Made by a program: the position numbers and the translations under genes
The notes under the pieces: model-generated
Database searches by the model: none
What the model saw: only the letters and a program-made list of their open reading frames with translations
Told to the model about the DNA's origin: nothing
Origin: a virus
Virus record (IMG/VR): IMGVR_UViG_3300031521_000015
DNA length: 64,000 bases
Strand: one strand, 5' to 3'
In this document: in pieces, positions 18,742 through 55,551 of the stretch
Numbering within the stretch: position 1 is the stretch's first letter
Layout of the letters: each line of letters begins with the position of its first letter

Positions 18742-18903
18742 ATGGATATTCAAAAAATATTTAGTAAAAGAGTGGCAATCCAATTACTCAATATGGGAAA
18801 TATAATACTATACACAGAGCAGAATAAAAAGTTCCCAAAACTTAAAGTATTCTGTTTTGTGAATACTAATAAATTAAACAATGATTGGAATTTGCTAAAA
18901 TAA
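18742..18903 (+). CDS. Small DUF5659-like protein
   Basis: IFSKRVAIQLLNMGN..VFCF; similar to 27178. Confidence 0.55.
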   Translation: MDIQKIFSKRVAIQLLNMGNIILYTEQNKKFPKLKVFCFVNTNKLNNDWNLLK

Positions 18904-18944
18904 ATATACAAAATTCAAATTATAATTCAAAGGAGACAAAATAT

Positions 18945-21713
18945 ATGGCGATGAATAAACAAATTAAACTATATTCTATAAACTTAGGAATGGTTAAAAC
19001 AGGAGATGAAAAGCAATTATATTCAATGAAGTATGTAAATGATGGCTCTATGTTCAGAATTAAGCAAAATTTATCAAATAGAATAAAGAATAAACTGGAT
19101 ACTACAGAGTGGACAAGCGAATGTAATACTATTTTTAAAAAGGAATTAAAAGAAAATATATTATATAAAATTATTAATCGAGAAAATAAAAAAATAACTA
19201 AAATGATACATAACACAATTAATGATTTTAATGAAGTTAGATACGTAGATAGTAAATATTTTAAAGAAACTAATGTAATTGCATTCTTTGATAATGTGCT
19301 TACAAGAACATTAAAATTAGAAAGTGAAGAACCTACTTTAGACTTTATAGTAATTGAAGTAGGAAATACTGATATGCTAATAGTAAAACAAGTAATAGAA
19401 AAAGGATTAATTATAATAAGTAGAGAAATGGAATATGATAAGGTAATTTCAGTTGATAATAAATATAAATTCTTTACTGCTGGAGCTGGGCAAACTCGTC
19501 AAAAGAAATTTATGATGATAAAGGAAGATGTTTGGAAAACTTACGAAGAAACATTAATGTGTGGATTGACTATAGAGCAAGTCAATAAAGTAGGGGGAAT
19601 GAACATAAATAAGTTTAATGCATATTTAAGTTTGAATAATTCGGCTTCGGAAGTGGTAGAAAATTTTGATATAGATAAATGTATTGTAGTGGACGATTTT
19701 ACAGAAATAATAAATGATACAGTTGATTATATTACAAGAGATGATGAAGTAGATAACGGGATAACAGAATATACTACAAAAGGAGGCAAGAAAGTCAAAC
19801 GAAAAAATAAAAAAACTGATTGGAGTATAAAAAGAGAAAAGAAAGATATATCTTTTGATTTTATGGATGGAGCAGGAATTTGTTTAAGTAATGTATTCAA
19901 TAAAAATACTCAAATAAGATTACCTTGGTTTAAGGGCTTGTTATGTCCCATAAATTATAAAAAATACATAGAAGAAAATAAGGATTGTTCTGTAAAGGTA
20001 AAAGACATATATGGAAAAGAGTATGATATTTTAGAAGATGATATTCAAGTTATATTTACAAAAAGTCAGTTCAAAATGTGGAAATTCTATAAAGATTGGA
20101 ATGAATATAAAACATATTTCAAGAAATATGAATGCACATGTAATAAATGTATGGAAGATGAAGACAAATTAAAGAATATGAGAATAAATTATCAAATGCT
20201 TCAAACTCTTACAGAAATGAGTGATGAAGAAATAGAATATTTAACTAAAGATGTTAAATCGTTAGTTAATGAAGTACATAGTAGTAAAGATAAACAACTT
20301 GAATTTTTAGGAGCAACCCTTGAAACAAAATATAGGGATTATATGCAAGAAATAATAAGGTTGTACCCCGAGATACTAACAAGCAAGTACATAAAAAAAC
20401 AACTAAGTGATACAATTACAAGCTTTAAGAAGGAAGCAAATAGTGGAAGAATCAAACTTCATGCAAAAAGAACTTTTATAATACCAGACTTAATACATTT
20501 TATGAGTGTATTATTTGGAAATGGACAAGACTATGCACTAGGTGAAAATGAAGTATTCTTCAATACATATAAAGATAGTAAAAGACTAGCATTATTACGT
20601 TCTCCTCATTTAAGCCGAGAATGGTGCTTAAGAAACAATATAAGTAATGAAAAAACAAAGTACTTTAAAACTAATGGAATATATGTGAGTGCTAAAGATT
20701 TGGCTTATTTGGTATTAATGTTCGATGTAGATGGAGATGAAGCCTTAGTTGTTGAGGATTGTGAGGAACAAAAATGGTTATTAGATTTGGCTGAAAAACA
20801 AATGAGTGAGTTAGTTCCTTTATATTACGAAATGGGTGGGGGAGAAGGAAAAGTTATAAATCCTATAAACATATTCAACTCTTTAAAATTTGTATATGAG
20901 AAGTCCAATATAGGTAAGGTTAGCAATACATTGACAAATATATTTTCAAAAGATGATTCTGAAAAAAATATGGATAACATAAAAAAGCTATGTGCATATA
21001 ATAACTGGATAATTGATAGTGCAAAAAAATTAGAGCTTCCTAAACTGCCAAAAGATATAAAACAACTAATGAATAATAAATTATATCCATACTTTTTTCA
21101 ATTTGCAAAGAACAAAAAAAGAAATGAGTGTAGAGATATAGGAAACGGAGTAATTGATAGAATTTGTAAGAGTATTAGCAATATAAAAAATACAGATTTT
21201 GATTATTCAAAAGGGTTTGGAAGATTTAATTTAAAGAAATTATTACATAATAACAAAATAGAAATAGATTATAATGTTATTGATTTTTATTTGAAGTTAG
21301 AAAATAGTACAAGAATACTTATTAATCAATATGCAACTAAATATAAGGAGGAAGATGCAGAATTTAATTATAAAGAATTAGCTTATAATCAAGCTAAAGA
21401 AGATACCTTAAAATATTCAAAAGAGATGAATATTGATTATTTAGATTTAATAGATATGATAATTAAATATGCATTTAATGAGGACGAAATGAAACTAGCT
21501 TTTATATTTAATGTATTTGGAGCAGTAATAATCAATAATCTAAATAACAATTTAGAATTATCATTAAATGATGAGACTGTTGAAATGTGTGATTGTTGTG
21601 GCAAAAGATTTGAAAAGAAGTCAAATAATGCAAAATATTGTTATAAGTGTGCTAAAGACATAGAAAAAGAACTAACAAAGGAAAGAGTAAGAAAATTTAG
21701 AAATAAAGAATAA
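18945..21713 (+). CDS. yonO: YonO-type single-subunit phage RNA polymerase (RdRP-like fold)
   Basis: AGQTRQKK, DGAG, QIRLPWFKG, RSPH and catalytic FDVDGD; AGGAG RBS before 18945. Confidence 0.9.
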   Translation: MAMNKQIKLYSINLGMVKTGDEKQLYSMKYVNDGSMFRIKQNLSNRIKNKLDTTEWTSECNTIFKKELKENILYKIINRENKKITKMIHNTINDFNEVRYVDSKYFKETNVIAFFDNVLTRTLKLESEEPTLDFIVIEVGNTDMLIVKQVIEKGLIIISREMEYDKVISVDNKYKFFTAGAGQTRQKKFMMIKEDVWKTYEETLMCGLTIEQVNKVGGMNINKFNAYLSLNNSASEVVENFDIDKCIVVDDFTEIINDTVDYITRDDEVDNGITEYTTKGGKKVKRKNKKTDWSIKREKKDISFDFMDGAGICLSNVFNKNTQIRLPWFKGLLCPINYKKYIEENKDCSVKVKDIYGKEYDILEDDIQVIFTKSQFKMWKFYKDWNEYKTYFKKYECTCNKCMEDEDKLKNMRINYQMLQTLTEMSDEEIEYLTKDVKSLVNEVHSSKDKQLEFLGATLETKYRDYMQEIIRLYPEILTSKYIKKQLSDTITSFKKEANSGRIKLHAKRTFIIPDLIHFMSVLFGNGQDYALGENEVFFNTYKDSKRLALLRSPHLSREWCLRNNISNEKTKYFKTNGIYVSAKDLAYLVLMFDVDGDEALVVEDCEEQKWLLDLAEKQMSELVPLYYEMGGGEGKVINPINIFNSLKFVYEKSNIGKVSNTLTNIFSKDDSEKNMDNIKKLCAYNNWIIDSAKKLELPKLPKDIKQLMNNKLYPYFFQFAKNKKRNECRDIGNGVIDRICKSISNIKNTDFDYSKGFGRFNLKKLLHNNKIEIDYNVIDFYLKLENSTRILINQYATKYKEEDAEFNYKELAYNQAKEDTLKYSKEMNIDYLDLIDMIIKYAFNEDEMKLAFIFNVFGAVIINNLNNNLELSLNDETVEMCDCCGKRFEKKSNNAKYCYKCAKDIEKELTKERVRKFRNKE

Positions 21714-23249: not shown

Positions 23250-24725
23250 ATGAGCAAAAAGAATAAGGATAATGATATAATTTTAAGTTTTGTCGGTGGA
23301 AGTAGGGACGATATTTGTGGATCTGCTTTATTAATTAGCTATCCTATAGGAAATGACAAACATAAATGCGTTTGTCTAGAATGTGGCATGATACAAGGAG
23401 AATCAAAACCAGAGATAGAATATTCAATGAATAAAAAAATGGTTGAAAATATTCCAGTAGGAGGTATTTCGGGAGTGTTTTTAATGCACTCCCACGTCTG
23501 AGTAGACCATATTGGGAACACACCTATATTTGGACAAGATATATTCAAAGGTGAAATAATTACAACAGAAGAATGTTTAATGATATCTAAAGAATTATTA
23601 AAAGATAGTGTGTATTTACATGATTGTTTAATAAAAGGTTTAAAAGCAAAAGGGAAAAGACCTAAAAACTTATATACTGAATTAGATATGTATAAGATGT
23701 TAGAGAAGGTAAAAACAGTTGAAACACATCAAGTATATAAATTTGATGATTGGTTAAGTTATGAATTTTATAATTCTGGACATGTATTAGGTGGTACTCA
23801 ATTGAAACTTACTTTTAGACTACCTAACAATAATATAAAATCCTTAGTTTACACAAGCGATTTGGGATCAGATTACAATTTAAAATATAAACCATTTGTA
23901 AAGAAAAGAGATATAATTCCTAAGGCTTCAATGTACGTTTTTGAGGCAACTTATTCAAACTCTGAAAAGTGCTTTGATAAAAATTTAGTAGAAAAAGAAA
24001 GAAATGAACTAAAAGAAACTTTAACTAAATATTTAAAAAGTGGACACCGAGTATTTTTTCCTTCCTTTTCTTTCGGGCGTACCCAAGAGTTACAATTTTT
24101 AATAAATTCGTTTTTTAAAGATGAAGAATGGTTTAATGAAATACCAGTAACAATTGATGGAAGATTAACTAATTCTATATGTGATACTTATAGCAAGATA
24201 TTAAAATATGATGAATTTGAGGACTGGGAGAGAATAAAAAACTGGAAGAATTTTCGTTATAATAAAGAATATAAAGGTACTTTGGGAATATTATCTAAAA
24301 GAGAATGTGGAATTTACATAAGTTCTAGTGGATTTGTTCAACCTAAAACACGTAGTTGTGACTATGTTAAAAATTTTATGGGAGTTACAGGAGATCTAAT
24401 TTGTTTCGTAGGATATTACGGAGCTGAAGGTTCAATTTCTCATGAATTAGTTACTAGACCAATAGGCACTCCTATTAAAATTGATGGAAGTACATTAATA
24501 AAAAGTTGTGATGTTCTTACTCAGAAAACATTTTCGAGCCACATTCAACAAGAAGAAATTTTTAGCTACTGGAGTCAAATAAACACAAATAAGATTCTAA
24601 TACACCATTGTACTGAAGAAGGAAAAATTGAAATGAAAGAAAAGGGAACTGAATATCTACAAAGTAAAAATAAAACAACTAAAATTGTAGGAGTAAGTAA
24701 ATTTGCTTCACAATTCATTTTATAA
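23250..24725 (+). CDS. Metallo-beta-lactamase/beta-CASP nuclease interrupted by in-frame TGA (23499-23501)
   Basis: GSALL..LECG, HSHV*VDHIG, SGHVLGG, YTSDLG, EATY, GRTQE, FSSH; both ORF halves are in the same frame. Confidence 0.85.
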
Positions 24726-27389: not shown

Positions 27390-28187
27390 ATGGAGAAATA
27401 TTATGGATTTGTTTATATAACAACAAACATGATAAATGGAAAAAGATACATAGGACAACATAAATTTAAAAAAGATTGGAAATATTATTTGGGTAGTGGA
27501 GTAATAATAAAAAGAGCTATTAAAAAATATGGACGAGAAAACTTTGTACGTGATATAGTGGCATTAACCTATACAAAAGAAGAATTAAATCATTTAGAAG
27601 AAGAATTTATAAAAAATTATAATGCAGTATATGATGATAATTATTATAATATATCAAGTGCTTCAATGGGTGGCAATGGAACTATGGACGGAAAAACAGA
27701 GGAAGAAATTAAAATTATAAGGCATAAGATGAGTGAATCACATAAAAAGTATACTCAAGAAAATAGCTATTGGTTTGGGAAAAATAAAACAGATGAAACA
27801 AAAGATAAAATAAGCAATTCATTAAAAGGAAGATTTGTAGGTGATAAACACCCTTTATATGGAATAAGAAGATTAGACATGGAGGGAGAAAATCATCCAC
27901 AAGCGAAAAGAGTAATTTGCATTACAACTGACAAAGTATTCAATACAATAAAAGAAGCAGGAGAATATTATAATATTAAATCTCCTTCTCATATCGGAGG
28001 ATGTTGTAGACGTGAAAGAAATTATTGTGGAAAATTAGATGATGGAACTAGACTAGAATGGCAGTATTATGAGGATTGTGATAGTGTTGATAAAGTTCAA
28101 TGTACTACACACGCAAGTCAATCACTGATTGTAGTTAACTATGATGGTGTTGAATATATTAGAGATATAAATTTACAAATCAATTAG
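27390..28187 (+). CDS. GIY-YIG homing endonuclease with NUMOD3/NUMOD1 domains
   Basis: GFVYITTNMINGKRYIGQ, YLGSG, ETKDKIS, KRVIC..F.TIKEA. Confidence 0.9.
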   Translation: MEKYYGFVYITTNMINGKRYIGQHKFKKDWKYYLGSGVIIKRAIKKYGRENFVRDIVALTYTKEELNHLEEEFIKNYNAVYDDNYYNISSASMGGNGTMDGKTEEEIKIIRHKMSESHKKYTQENSYWFGKNKTDETKDKISNSLKGRFVGDKHPLYGIRRLDMEGENHPQAKRVICITTDKVFNTIKEAGEYYNIKSPSHIGGCCRRERNYCGKLDDGTRLEWQYYEDCDSVDKVQCTTHASQSLIVVNYDGVEYIRDINLQIN

Positions 28188-33206: not shown

Positions 33207-34304
33207 ATGGAAACTAAAACATGTACTAAATGTGGACAAGAGTTCCCAATGTCTAAAGAATATTTTGAACCCAGAAAAGAATCAAAAGATGGATTCAGAA
33301 ATCAATGTAGAGATTGCAGAAATATCAATAGAAGAAATATATATGATGATAAATATAAAAGTGAAGATAATAGAAGATGGCAACAAGAAGAAATAGATAT
33401 ATTGAATAAATATTATGAAATTATGAGTAACAATGAATTACAAGAAAAGTATTTAAACACTAGAACTATTTCTCAAATAATAGATTATGCAAGTAAAAAA
33501 TTAAACTTACATAAACATGATGACGTTAAAATATATTATAGTGATGGTACAACAATGGGGTGGACAAAAGAAGATGATGAATATTTATTAAAAAACTATC
33601 CATCAACAAATTTTAAAGAAATGGAATTAGCTTTAGGAAAAAACAGTTTTACAATAACAGCTAGAGCTATTAAAAAGGGAATACAAAGAGATAATAAGTA
33701 TTCTGAAGAAGAAATAAATATCGTAAAAAAGTATTATGCAGACAATGAAAACAAATGGATTATTGATAATTTTATGAGTAGTAGAAGTAAGACTGAAATA
33801 ATAGGATTAGCAAATCGTTTAGGAATAAATAAAAATGATGAACTGATATTTCAAATAAGAGTTGATACTGGCTTAAAAAATTTAAAATGTATACCTGACC
33901 AAACAGGTTCTAATAGTCCTTGTTGGAAAGGTGGAACAGACGTATTAAGATTATATGTAAGAAACCATATTAGAAAATGGAACAAAGATAGTTTAAAATA
34001 TTATAATAATAAATGTTTTATTAGTGGAGATTCAGAAAATTTGATAATCCATCATGGATACTCTTTTAAAGACATATTGAATGAGACTATAAAAGAATTA
34101 GGACTTACTTATAATAATGATTTATCTAATTATAGTAATGGTGAACTTAGAAATATAATAGATTTATCAAATGAAAAACACTATAAATATGGTTTTGGAA
34201 TCCCTTTAACCAAAGAATTACATTTATTATTTCATAAAACTTATGGTTTTGTAAATTACACAAATGAACAGTTAATAGAATTTAAAAATAATTATGCTAG
34301 TTGA
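33207..34304 (+). CDS. HNH-type endonuclease with zinc finger and Myb-like repeats
   Basis: CTKC..CRDC; W..EE repeats; CFISG..IHH..LHLLFHKTYG. Confidence 0.75.
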   Translation: METKTCTKCGQEFPMSKEYFEPRKESKDGFRNQCRDCRNINRRNIYDDKYKSEDNRRWQQEEIDILNKYYEIMSNNELQEKYLNTRTISQIIDYASKKLNLHKHDDVKIYYSDGTTMGWTKEDDEYLLKNYPSTNFKEMELALGKNSFTITARAIKKGIQRDNKYSEEEINIVKKYYADNENKWIIDNFMSSRSKTEIIGLANRLGINKNDELIFQIRVDTGLKNLKCIPDQTGSNSPCWKGGTDVLRLYVRNHIRKWNKDSLKYYNNKCFISGDSENLIIHHGYSFKDILNETIKELGLTYNNDLSNYSNGELRNIIDLSNEKHYKYGFGIPLTKELHLLFHKTYGFVNYTNEQLIEFKNNYAS

Positions 34305-34400: not shown

Positions 34401-36252
34401 ATGGGAATTGGAAAGCAAAACTTATCACAAAGAAAATTAGAAGGATATATGAAATATGTAGAAATGATACAGTGGGGCAGAAAAAATCCTGCACGAACGA
34501 TTCGTTGAGGATTTCATGGGAATTCAATTTTTAGATTTACAAAAATATATATTTATGAATATGTGGACTACGCCATTTGTATTGTTATGCCAATGTAGGA
34601 ATAGTGGGAAAAGTACGATTTCAGCTCCATTTTTGATGGCGAAATCCATATTATACCCAAACTTTTATAGTTATATAATATCAACAAATGGTAGTCAAGC
34701 TCAGGAAACTTTCTTAAAAATAGAAAAAATAACCAAGAGACAATTATCTTCATTTACGGGTTTAACAGATTTCTTTCAAAATGAAATAATTACTTCAAAT
34801 GCTAACAAAGATGGGTTCACTCATAAACCAGAGTCATTTACTTTCGAAGTATTTAATGGTAGTAAAGTACATACATTGAACTCAAACTATGATGGATCAC
34901 GTGGGAAAAGAAGCATGTGCAATTTTTATGACGAAACTGGATTTATGTTAGAAAAAGCTTTTGGTGCAACTGAACCATTTACAACACAAAATGCAGACTT
35001 TAAGTTAGGAGGAGATATTGACGTATCACTAGAACCACAAAGTTTTCCAAACCAACTTATATACGCTTCTTCGGCATCAAGTATAGATACTTATTTTTTT
35101 AAAAAATATAAAGAATTTAGTAAACAAATGCTATTAGGAAATAAAAATTATTTCTGTGCTGATATTAAGTGTGATTTAGTTTTAAATCCTATGTTTAATG
35201 GTAAATTATATCCAGTATCTTTGCTAACACAAGAAAAAATAGATAATGCTATGAGAGAAAATAAAGAACAAGCTCTTAGAGAATACCATAATATGTTTTC
35301 TAAAGAAGGTGGAGAACAACAACCATTTAAAAGAGGACAAATAATAAAAAATAGTGAAGTCAGAAGACCAATGTTGGTAAACGAAGGAAATATTGAACGA
35401 CATATCACAGCTTTTTATGATCCTGCAAGAAGTTTTGATGACTCTGCTGTATTGTTTGCTGAATTTATGAAAGATAAGGAATTAGGATGGACTTGTAAAA
35501 TAATAAATGCAGTAAGATTAGTAGATATAGGAACGAAGAAAAAAATACCAATGAGAACACCTGAACAAATAGAGTATATTAGAAATTTATTAGTAGATTA
35601 TAATGGTCAAGGATTTGGAGAATATGAAAATATAGGTGCAATATTGGTAGATTCAGGAGCTGGTGGAGCAGGAGTTAATATTGCAGATTATTTTATGGAA
35701 GAGTGGACAGATAAAAAAGGAATGAAAAGAAAAGGTTTGATAGATGCTATAGAATCTAAAGAATATACAAATAAATTTCCTGAAGCTGTAGATAAAATGC
35801 GATTAATTTCTCCTAAAAAATATAGGACTGAAATGTTTGATGCCTTGGTGGAAATGATTAATTTAGATTTAGTTTCGTTTACGGAAACATATGACATGAA
35901 AGGATTTATAAGTATTCCTGTAGAAACAGAAATAATATATAAAGACGAAAAAACAAAAACAGATAAAAAACAAAAAGAGATAAAATATAAGCAAGCAAAT
36001 TTATGTTTCGAAGAACAATTGGCTTTAAAAACTATAGATAAACTAAAAGAACAATTGGTGCAAATATATAGATTCGATAATGCTGAAAGAACTTCACATA
36101 AATACGCTTTATCTCCTGAAAAACAAAATACTATGCATGATGACTTGGCTTATTGTGGAGCAATGATGGGTTGGTATTTAAAACAATTAAGGAGAGAAAA
36201 TATAACTAATGAAGATGATGATGATGAAGACCGTCAATGGGTATTTTGGTAA
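34401..36252 (+). CDS. terL: Terminase large subunit; N-terminal segment out of frame because of a 4-nt insert at 34497-34500
   Basis: RNSGKS Walker A, FYDE Walker B, YDPARSFDDS and HDD nuclease motifs; upstream frame reads ..QWGRKNPAR, downstream frame FVEDFMG. Confidence 0.9.
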
Positions 36253-53931: not shown

Positions 53932-55551
53932 ATGGAAGGAAATAGACAATTAAATCAAGAAGAATATATGGAGATTATTGAAAAATTTAAGGAAAATAAT
54001 AGAGAAGATTATGAGAGTGGTAAATGTAAAAAGATATTTTTGGAATGTTTGCCTAGATGGGGAAAAGGTGGAAAAGCAAAAGAAGGTAGTATAAATTGGA
54101 TTGAATCAGTGAATAAAAATTATTATATATTTTTTATATATGGTGTTCATGAGGATTATATAAGATTAATAGATTATTCATATGATAAACAATTAAAAAT
54201 AACAATTGAATATTATGGTGAAAACTTAAGTTTAAATGCAGGGAGCATTAATAATTGTCAAATAGGCAAACTATTCAATATAAGGAATAAAGAATATTTA
54301 TATAATAGAGGTGATATTGTCAAAGGAAAGCATTCAAATTTATTGATATTAGAACAATTAATTATTAAATCAAACTATAGTTATAAAGTTAAAGGATATA
54401 AATATAAATGTTTGTCATGTGGAGATATAGATGAAATTTCTCAAAGAGATATTCTACGTGGAGTAGGTTGTGAAATTTGTTGTCCAAATTCTCAAAAAGT
54501 CGTAAAAGAGATAAATTCTATATGGAAAACGAACCTAGAACTAGTTAAATACTTTGTAAACGAAGAAGATACTTGGAAATACACAATTGGTAGCCATAAA
54601 AAAGTGTGGTTTAAGTGTTTGGACTGTTATTATAGAAAAGAAATGACTATTGATAATTTTGTAAGGAACGGATTTTCATGTAATAAATGTGGGGATGGTA
54701 TTTCAGTGCCAAATAAAATAATGTTTAATGTGTTAGAACAACTAAATGTTCAATTTGAAGCAGAAAAGAAAGTAGAATGGTGTAAATTTTTATATAAAAA
54801 TAAACGAAGACAAGGTTATTATGATTTCTATTTTGAGCAAGATGGCAAAAAATACATTATAGAAATGGATGGGGGTCTAGGTCATGGTAAGGGGAATTTT
54901 AAGAATAATATGACTGCTAAAGAATCACAATTTATTGATGATGAAAAAGATAGATTAGCTATTGAACATGGAATTGAAGTAATTAGAGTTGACTGTGACC
55001 ATCGTATGTACTATGGATTTGATTATATAAAAAATAATATATTATCTAATGTTAATATAAATAATTTGTTTTTATTAGCCAATATTGATTGGAGTAAGGT
55101 TTTGAAATTTGTTTCGTCAAGTAGAATCAAAGAAGCTTGTGATTTATGGAATATCGGTATTCATAGTACAACTGAAATTTCCAAAATTATGAAGATGAGC
55201 AGAACAACAATTTGCACGTATTTAAAAATAGGATTTGAACTGAAAATAACAGATTATACTGTGGAAATTTCAAAAAATATTAATAATAATAATACTATAG
55301 AAAGAAATAAACAAAAGTTAAGTACTAAAATAATTTGTATAGAAAATGGTATTATATTTAATTCCATTTCTGAATGTGAATTAAATAGTTTTAAAATATT
55401 TGGAATAAAAATGTTTAATAGTGCTATAACTAAAGTATGTCAAGGGAAACAGCAACATCATCAAGGATATCAATTTAGATACTTAAAAGACCTTACCGAA
55501 GAACAAATAAAAGAAATTCAAGAAAATGCAAAATTAAATCAAGCAATATAA
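53932..55551 (+). CDS. Zinc-ribbon + PD-(D/E)xK-like + NUMOD1-like endonuclease
   Basis: YYDFYF..IIEMDGGLGH; paralogue of 6918. Confidence 0.75.
   Translation: MEGNRQLNQEEYMEIIEKFKENNREDYESGKCKKIFLECLPRWGKGGKAKEGSINWIESVNKNYYIFFIYGVHEDYIRLIDYSYDKQLKITIEYYGENLSLNAGSINNCQIGKLFNIRNKEYLYNRGDIVKGKHSNLLILEQLIIKSNYSYKVKGYKYKCLSCGDIDEISQRDILRGVGCEICCPNSQKVVKEINSIWKTNLELVKYFVNEEDTWKYTIGSHKKVWFKCLDCYYRKEMTIDNFVRNGFSCNKCGDGISVPNKIMFNVLEQLNVQFEAEKKVEWCKFLYKNKRRQGYYDFYFEQDGKKYIIEMDGGLGHGKGNFKNNMTAKESQFIDDEKDRLAIEHGIEVIRVDCDHRMYYGFDYIKNNILSNVNINNLFLLANIDWSKVLKFVSSSRIKEACDLWNIGIHSTTEISKIMKMSRTTICTYLKIGFELKITDYTVEISKNINNNNTIERNKQKLSTKIICIENGIIFNSISECELNSFKIFGIKMFNSAITKVCQGKQQHHQGYQFRYLKDLTEEQIKEIQENAKLNQAI

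Follow-up and report, generated by a model that had tools for sequence, protein, structure and literature searches.

How could a phage obtain a complete metallo-nuclease from a gene whose catalytic motif is interrupted by a stop codon? The question is raised by 64,000 nucleotides of the IMG/VR virus record IMGVR_UViG_3300031521_000015 (this whole stretch is denoted the window, with positions counted from its first letter), in which a β-CASP nuclease gene is split between two open reading frames (ORFs). Direct reading of positions 23487-23510 gives CAC TCC CAC GTC TGA GTA GAC CAT, letter by letter as reported in a preliminary description of this DNA. The 83 codons of the ORF at 23250-23501, which is closed by TGA, and the open frame at 23502-24725 share one common frame, and the DNA as written encodes HSHV-stop-VDH instead of a contiguous metallo-β-lactamase (MBL) motif 2, HxHxDH; the motif is regained as HSHVDH if six nucleotides are skipped. 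Comparison with related genes suggests that one CPSF73-like β-CASP metallo-nuclease of 489 residues is probably made by a programmed short translational bypass, namely a stop-hop from GUC across UGA to GUA.

The downstream part of the gene product matches PF10996 in Pfam (E 2.8e-07, score above the gathering level), and the family profile matches the structurally solved RNases CPSF73, Ysh1, IntS11, FttA and TTHA0252 with E-values down to 2.7e-47 (2.7e-47 to 1.8e-32 for the Ysh1, IntS11, CPSF73 and FttA chains). The β-CASP domain is found together with MBL motifs 3 and 4 and β-CASP motifs A, B and C, and the window protein shares the invariant residues H178, D204, E232, H431, H452 and H453 in an alignment of 37 homologues (alignment A1). 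Each full-length protein in this alignment carries HxH-xDH and is gap-free at the position of the window's HSHV-stop-VDH; hence the window holds six extra bases, corresponding to two codons, inside MBL motif 2, and the earlier statement that a 6-nt skip restores HSHVDH agrees with the gap-free HxHxDH of the homologues. An alternative genetic code with TGA as a sense codon was considered and rejected: TGA terminates 2 of the 39 long plus-strand ORFs of the window, none of the other long ORFs contains it in frame, and the frame-shifting inserts of relatives described below speak against such a code as well.

The interruption is not confined to the window. Thirteen insert versions are available as DNA, all of them at a single codon junction, and removal of the insert restores HxHxDH every time; about three further versions are visible at the protein level in the tails of N-terminal fragments, which brings the total to about 16. 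The inserts are 4-24 nt long, cover all three length classes modulo 3 (Table 1) and occur in homologues with 27-90% identity to the window's gene from at least 15 samples, and the interrupted genes for which DNA is available are broken once each, without exception at this junction. The IMG/VR contig L009 carries the same GTCTGA insert in a gene whose protein is 95% identical to that of the window at a synonymous divergence (dS) of 0.59. The gene in L008 shows 0 differences from the window's over 1476 nt of DNA and is therefore not regarded as independent support. Loci L001-L007, the next closest relatives at 90% identity and stemming from several samples, have seven bases at the junction (CAY GTC CCC A GTA GAC CAT). 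The search for the same insert in homologues that the preliminary description had proposed thus yielded it in L009 and inserts of other lengths in diverged relatives, and an insert unique to this assembly, the outcome feared there, is contradicted by the at least 15 samples and their separate assemblies.

Further interrupted DNA was traced from search-hit proteins that begin right at xDH, and word searches for N-terminal fragments gave 9 and then 4 matches, the number of versions being a lower bound. The junction is unbroken in 78 other IMG/VR loci (L010-L087) and in three further loci on metagenome contigs. A scan of metagenome contigs returned four loci and a scan of genome contigs distant relatives alone (20-27% identity), no close relative in either DNA or protein was found among GenBank phages, and a hairpin pattern scan of IMG/VR DNA matched two already known contigs and no others.

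Most of the inserts begin and end with codons of a particular kind. Eleven of the 13 DNA versions open with TGA in frame with ORF1, and the other two with CCC (8 of 219 Pro codons) or ACG (36 of 838 Thr codons), both of them infrequent sense codons, so that a stop or a hungry codon would occupy the A site at take-off. Eight versions have GTC as their take-off codon; among the Val codons in long ORFs of the window it is the least frequent (27 of 672, 4%). The final triplet of the gap is synonymous with the take-off codon in seven versions, six of these pairs being GTC to GTA or GTT and one, from a separate clade, CTT to CTA (Leu), which means that in the latter codon identity has switched on both sides together.

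As the insert lengths vary, no single frameshift or readthrough covers all cases. Recoding that keeps the extra residues would have to proceed by UGA readthrough in the window (HSHVxVDH) and by +1, -1 and +2 frameshifts in relatives. An eight-residue HxHxxxDH would result from readthrough in the window and likewise from a +1 shift in L001 (at CCC-A) or a -1 shift in L088, and the readthrough product of 491 amino acids equals many homologues in length. However, all uninterrupted homologues have exactly HxHxDH, in which His, His, Asp and His are the metal ligands, the 13-nt and 24-nt inserts would add up to eight residues inside the motif, and a separate mechanism would be required for each insert length. 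As the matched Val-Val and Leu-Leu codons would moreover be left unexplained, this type of recoding is considered quite improbable. Excision of the insert from the mRNA by a cleavage-and-ligation or editing activity, the micro-intron that the preliminary description had offered beside the hop, has little probability too, even though exact removal would regain the motif at any insert length: the inserts share no boundary sequence besides the in-frame TGA (11 of 13), and an in-frame stop, a rare take-off codon and synonymous flanks are signals read by ribosomes and not splicing signals. To our knowledge, no such activity acting on segments of 4-24 nt exists in bacteria or phages, and excision would leave the in-frame TGA at the head of most inserts unexplained.

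Signals of a further kind are located upstream of the junction. A strong Shine-Dalgarno-like word is present in 14 of 15 interrupted loci (L113 being the exception), 38-66 nt 5′ of the take-off codon and with duplex energies of -8.7 to -15.6 kcal/mol against the 16S 3′ end, as compared to a median of -3.6 kcal/mol and a best value of -6.1 kcal/mol at 33 distinct uninterrupted loci. Most interrupted loci also possess a stable hairpin ending 0-3 nt before the take-off codon, and the 40 nt upstream of this codon fold with a median of -11.5 kcal/mol versus -4.7 kcal/mol in the 33 uninterrupted loci. Ignoring phylogeny, the contrast between interrupted and uninterrupted loci corresponds to Mann-Whitney p-values of about 1e-6 to 1e-7. 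Neither word nor hairpin is found in L092, the closest uninterrupted relative for which DNA is available.

In the window the 5′ hairpin has a folding energy of -14.3 kcal/mol and a z-score of -3.1, with 1 of 200 shuffled sequences being as good. Its stem, GGGAGTG/CACTCCC, had been listed in the preliminary description as an alternative fold, and it is this stem that turns out to be real and above chance: within the window's clade it reads either GGGAGTG/CACTCCC or GGCTGTG/CACAGCC, two compensatory pairs that are tied to a switch of a serine codon from TCC to AGC, and 100% of its cells are paired across five distinct sequences. In other clades a hairpin is located at the same place and built of other sequences. 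By contrast, the apex hairpin described there, GTCT-GAGT-AGAC extended by TCCCA/TGGGA and enclosing take-off codon and stop, amounts to -7.9 kcal/mol with a z-score of -0.69 (47 of 200 shuffles as good); it is weak and no better than shuffled sequence. The GTCT...AGAC complementarity recurs in L090 and L091 because of the codons themselves. The conserved structure is the 5′ stem plus the upstream Shine-Dalgarno-like word. Codon variation drops immediately 5′ of the site and returns directly past it, with 1 of 28 codons differing between the window and L009 (25% gene-wide) and 3 of 28 between L001 and L002 (37% gene-wide). Over the approximately 25 residues that lead up to the site, the uninterrupted protein P0004 and the interrupted P0272 hardly differ; thus no insert-specific nascent peptide is apparent.

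Both halves of the gene have been under strong purifying selection since the insert-sharing lineages parted, the ratio of non-synonymous to synonymous divergence (dN/dS) in the two halves ranging overall from 0.03 to 0.09. Between the window and L009 the downstream part shows 96 synonymous and 25 non-synonymous differences (dS 0.59, dN/dS 0.043), and dN/dS is 0.088 in the upstream part. The pair L001 and L002, with the 7-nt insert in common, has a dS of 1.09 and a dN/dS of 0.06, with 0.027 in the ORF1 half; values for the ORF2 half are 0.043-0.075. In the first codons past the gap, 8 of 9 differences between the window and L002 are synonymous as read off the sequences. Synonymous divergence resumes directly after the gap, which argues that translation of the downstream frame begins there rather than at the ATG that comes first (23580). 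Selection acts on the translation products of both halves, and the insert is genuine and recurs at this site.

The position of this resumption bears on a two-chain arrangement, in which ORF1 would end at UGA, ORF2 would be initiated separately from a split ribosome-binding site, and the two chains would assemble. Split ribosome-binding sites exist in some T4 genes and resemble the Shine-Dalgarno word plus hairpin found here, and folding of the hairpin would put the word about 7 nt from GUC. A precedent for assembly is given by the pieces of T4 topoisomerase split at gene 60, which can assemble (10.1101/2022.08.31.505936). However, neither the window nor most relatives have an ATG, GTG or TTG at the resume point or close to it, where the codons are GTA, GTT, CTA, GAT and GAC, synonymous-only divergence begins right at the resume codon, and the matched flanking codons would remain unexplained, so that separate initiation is hardly to be expected. 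A pseudogene carrying an inactivating indel, or an assembly artifact, is very improbable despite the splitting of every interrupted relative's gene by gene callers and the apparent disruption of the Clostridium phage c-st homologue by an insertion sequence, given the dN/dS of both halves among insert-sharing lineages, the single break at an invariable junction and the recovery from at least 15 separate samples by different assemblers.

The programmed hop suggested in the preliminary description is therefore supported by the common junction, the inserts of 4-24 nt that are mostly TGA-led, the mostly synonymous flanking codons and the purifying selection. In the proposed bypass the ribosome would decode ORF1 as far as Val83 and stall once GUC occupies the P site and UGA the A site; since GUC is the rarest Val codon in the window, the pairing of its tRNA is probably weak. 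The peptidyl-tRNA(Val) would then release GUC, the mRNA would slide by 6 nt, and the tRNA would re-pair with GUA. Subsequent reading of GAC would give ...H-S-H-V-D-H-I-G-N... with the zinc-binding HxHxDH motif intact, the junction peptide expected from the hop being MVENIPVGGISGVFLMHSHVDHIGNTPIFGQDIFK. The forward move would probably be favored by two 5′ signals, namely the 8-bp hairpin and the Shine-Dalgarno-like word 5′ of it. With its 3′ arm inside the ribosome at take-off, the hairpin could re-form only while the mRNA exits, and may in this way serve as a forward ratchet. Such exit-dependent re-forming agrees with a preprint in which base pairing of the mRNA as it exits is proposed as the driving force of forward bypassing (10.1101/2024.12.09.627546). 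What we infer is the hop as such, how efficient it is and what each signal contributes.

Several points weigh against the stop-hop. Six of the 13 versions are without a synonymous landing codon, the match extending to two of three positions in L111, L097, L096 and L113 and being poor in L093 and L088; the yeast mitochondrial bypass elements (byps) likewise fall short of perfect codon matches (PMC5009743). The 4-nt versions allow other parses that also yield a valid motif, and the contrast in word and hairpin is confounded by phylogeny, L092 being the sole close uninterrupted DNA. Finally, no tRNA genes were found in the window.

Table 1. Features of the split β-CASP nuclease gene in the window and insert versions at the same junction in relatives (inserts given in brackets where so delimited).
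Feature	Position or locus	Strand	Description
ORF1	23250-23498	+	β-CASP nuclease codons 1-83, end ...FLMHSHV; HxH half of MBL motif 2
Shine-Dalgarno-like word	23459-23465	+	AGGAGGT; 5 nt 5′ of hairpin; duplex with 16S 3′ end -11.6 kcal/mol
5′ stem-loop	23471-23493	+	GGGAGUGU, 7-nt loop, GCACUCCC; 8 bp; ends 2 nt before take-off codon
Codon positions of the site	23487-23510		CAC 23487, TCC 23490, CAC 23493, GTC 23496-23498, TGA 23499-23501, GTA 23502-23504, GAC 23505, CAT 23508
Take-off codon	23496-23498	+	GUC (Val83); from sequence and codon counts
6-nt coding gap	23499-23504	+	UGA stop 23499-23501, landing codon GUA 23502-23504
ORF2	23505-24725	+	resumes at GAC (Asp), DHIGNTPIF..., stop 24723-24725; xDH half of motif 2, MBL motifs 3-4, β-CASP domain, motifs A-C
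4-nt insert	L093		GTC[TGAG]GAT
4-nt insert	L111		GTC[TGAC]GAC
5-nt insert	L088		CTG[TGATA]GAT
5-nt insert	L113		CAT[TGAAT]TTA GAC
6-nt insert	window, L009		GTC TGA GTA GAC
7-nt insert	L001-L007		GTC CCC A GTA GAC
7-nt insert	L097		TGC[TGACAGC]GAC
8-nt insert	L091		GTC[TGACGGTA]GAC
11-nt insert	L112		CTT[TGAAATCACTA]GAC
13-nt insert	L089		GTC[TGACGACTCAGTT]GAC
13-nt insert	L096		CAT[TGAGTTAAGTCAA]GTA GAT
14-nt insert	L098		GTC[ACGACACCAACGTT]GAT
24-nt insert	L090		

Natural programmed bypassing is known from very few systems, namely T4 gene 60 and its homologues, the yeast mitochondrial byps and the candidate in Hau3. In the terminase of the Streptomyces phage Hau3 (Smith et al. 2013), two coding gaps of 10 nt each are candidates for regulatory bypassing; a 5′ stem-loop flanked by a Shine-Dalgarno word has been proposed, the insert is led by the rare sense codon UUA and borne by 3 of 100 terminase genes, and a junction peptide was obtained by mass spectrometry in E. 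coli (PMC10732093). In both cases a short, frame-disrupting insert with a slow codon at its 5′ end interrupts a phage enzyme gene where it is conserved, a 5′ stem-loop with a flanking Shine-Dalgarno word is proposed, and removal of the insert regains the conserved protein; the β-CASP site thus shares these features of a Hau3-type short bypass. In contrast to Hau3, the A-site codon is here mostly UGA, the gene encodes a β-CASP nuclease in low-GC phages, and gap lengths between 4 and 24 nt occur across many diverged lineages, the window version being in frame. Moreover, bypassing in Hau3 is backed by the junction peptide, whereas the β-CASP hop is a prediction from sequence.

In T4 gene 60 a 50-nt bypass is located within a MobA homing-endonuclease element (10.1101/2022.08.31.505936; PMC5462505). 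As in gene 60, a metal-binding motif in a phage enzyme is divided by the insert, family members with an insert are dispersed over the tree, a 5′ stem-loop precedes the take-off codon, a stop codon (in two versions a rare sense codon) directly follows it, and take-off and landing codons (GUC/GUA) could be read by one peptidyl-tRNA. Unlike gene 60, the gap comprises 6 nt instead of 50 and is too short to accommodate a Shine-Dalgarno word close to the landing site (the word is situated 5′ of the hairpin, outside the gap), no distinctive nascent peptide is seen, and the sequence is not homologous to the cassette of gene 60. At gene 60 the gap travels with the homing endonuclease (10.1101/2022.08.31.505936); according to gene tables and a Pfam scan, no homing-endonuclease cassette stands beside the gap at any of the interrupted loci examined. 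A free-standing gene for a SegE-like GIY-YIG homing endonuclease with NUMOD3 is found in the window at 27390-28187, 3.9 kb downstream of the site. It is the endonuclease nearest to the bypass site in the window, and is too far away to be counted as one cassette with it.

Synthetic stop-hops in E. coli (Weiss et al. 1987) have matched codons flanking a stop, and natural in-frame stop hopping was unknown according to the 2016 review in which they are covered (PMC5009743). As in these constructs, matched codons surround an in-frame stop in the window and nine nucleotides specify one amino acid (GUC UGA GUA, 23496-23504, for Val). The synthetic sites were engineered and are said to have hopped with low efficiency, whereas the β-CASP site is natural, conserved and accompanied by upstream signals. 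The byps of Magnusiomyces capitatus are 27-55 nt long and belong to mitochondria with relaxed decoding, where an unused codon is placed in the A site, in contrast to the UGA-led inserts of 4-24 nt in bacterial phages reported here. Literature searches returned nothing on this gene family.

The locus provides, at one codon junction and behind one simple 5′ signal, naturally occurring gaps of 4-24 nt, a series that spans stop-led as well as hungry-codon-led forms and matched as well as unmatched landing codons. It is therefore close to a ready-made mutational series on short-range ribosome sliding and on the strictness of the landing codon. Since gene callers split all interrupted genes, annotations present what is probably an active CPSF73-like nuclease as a pseudogene or as a pair of fragments.

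When interruption is mapped on a tree with 69 members of the family, about nine changes of state are required, at least eight of them across well-supported branches; the insert has thus often been gained or lost, or has been moved by recombination. A second split gene of the window is that of the terminase large subunit (phrog_5989), with ORFs at 34401-34508 and 34468-36252 and a 4-nt insert, CGA[ACGA]TTC, at 34494-34503. The first of these ORFs runs through ...WGRKNPAR (CGA, 34494-34496) and then into ACG ATT CGT TGA; skipping of ACGA leads to an identical CGA codon (34498-34500) and continues with FVEDFMGIQ... A terminase homologue of 50% identity reads WGRRNPVKFAELV and is unbroken at the window's insert point. 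No significant 5′ hairpin was detected at the terminase site of the window (z -0.58), and a scan of the window for split genes gave none beyond this one. This homologue, which is that of L115 (IMG/VR 3300028664_000009), has two TGA-led inserts of its own: its Walker A motif (RNGG|KST) is interrupted at 1588-1604 by GGC[TGAGT]AAA, and an in-frame 9-nt insert with identical Leu codons is found at 1704-1718, CTT[TGACAACTT]AAA; the window terminase is continuous at both positions.

Taken together, nuclease and terminase inserts permit the tentative reading that these low-GC phages may bypass short gaps independently of the gene, by means of a 5′ Shine-Dalgarno word and hairpin and even with an unmatched landing codon. 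UGA-led inserts of 4-24 nt would then lie in the catalytic motifs of several genes and would often be gained and lost, as in the at least eight changes on the tree. The sites concerned are HxHxDH of the β-CASP gene, the N-terminus of the window's terminase and, in the relative's terminase, the Walker A motif and the 9-nt Leu-Leu stop-hop. They may be scars that protect against homing endonucleases or, alternatively, gates on lytic genes, with release factor 2 or the growth state as what the gates sense.

An ORF just upstream of the terminase start (33207-34304) shows a CxxC ... HH pattern; Pfam gave no nuclease domain for it, and it is not similar to the ORF at 53932-55551. If it were an endonuclease, the terminase insert would be about 190 nt away from it. 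In L008 and L114-L115 the β-CASP DNA is identical to that of the window, and the terminase at the same downstream distance has 50% protein identity, a contrast that points to a mosaic genome or a chimeric contig.

The region of the nuclease gene contains YonK-like, terminase, portal and tail genes, and the upstream gene in relatives encodes a YonO-type polymerase (PF05183). In L089 (1-1463) the nuclease gene directly follows such a PF05183 gene for a YonO-type single-subunit RNA polymerase. In the window a 942-residue phrog_8308 protein without a Pfam match is encoded about 1.5 kb upstream (18885-21713), with two small ORFs in between. Being of the CPSF73, FttA and IntS11 type, the nuclease could serve as a 3′-end processing or termination factor for transcripts of the phage's own polymerase.

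Among phages with a named host the only match is a distant homologue in Clostridium botulinum phage c-st (AP008983.1, 160538-161110, 27% identity), which is apparently cut by the insertion sequence ISCbt1. Three other distant homologues (L085-L087, 26% identity) have SDNHGDH in place of HxHxDH and a single in-frame TAG each (L085:4309, L087:4309 and L086:3154) at a position unrelated to the bypass junction; these phages may use TAG as a sense codon.

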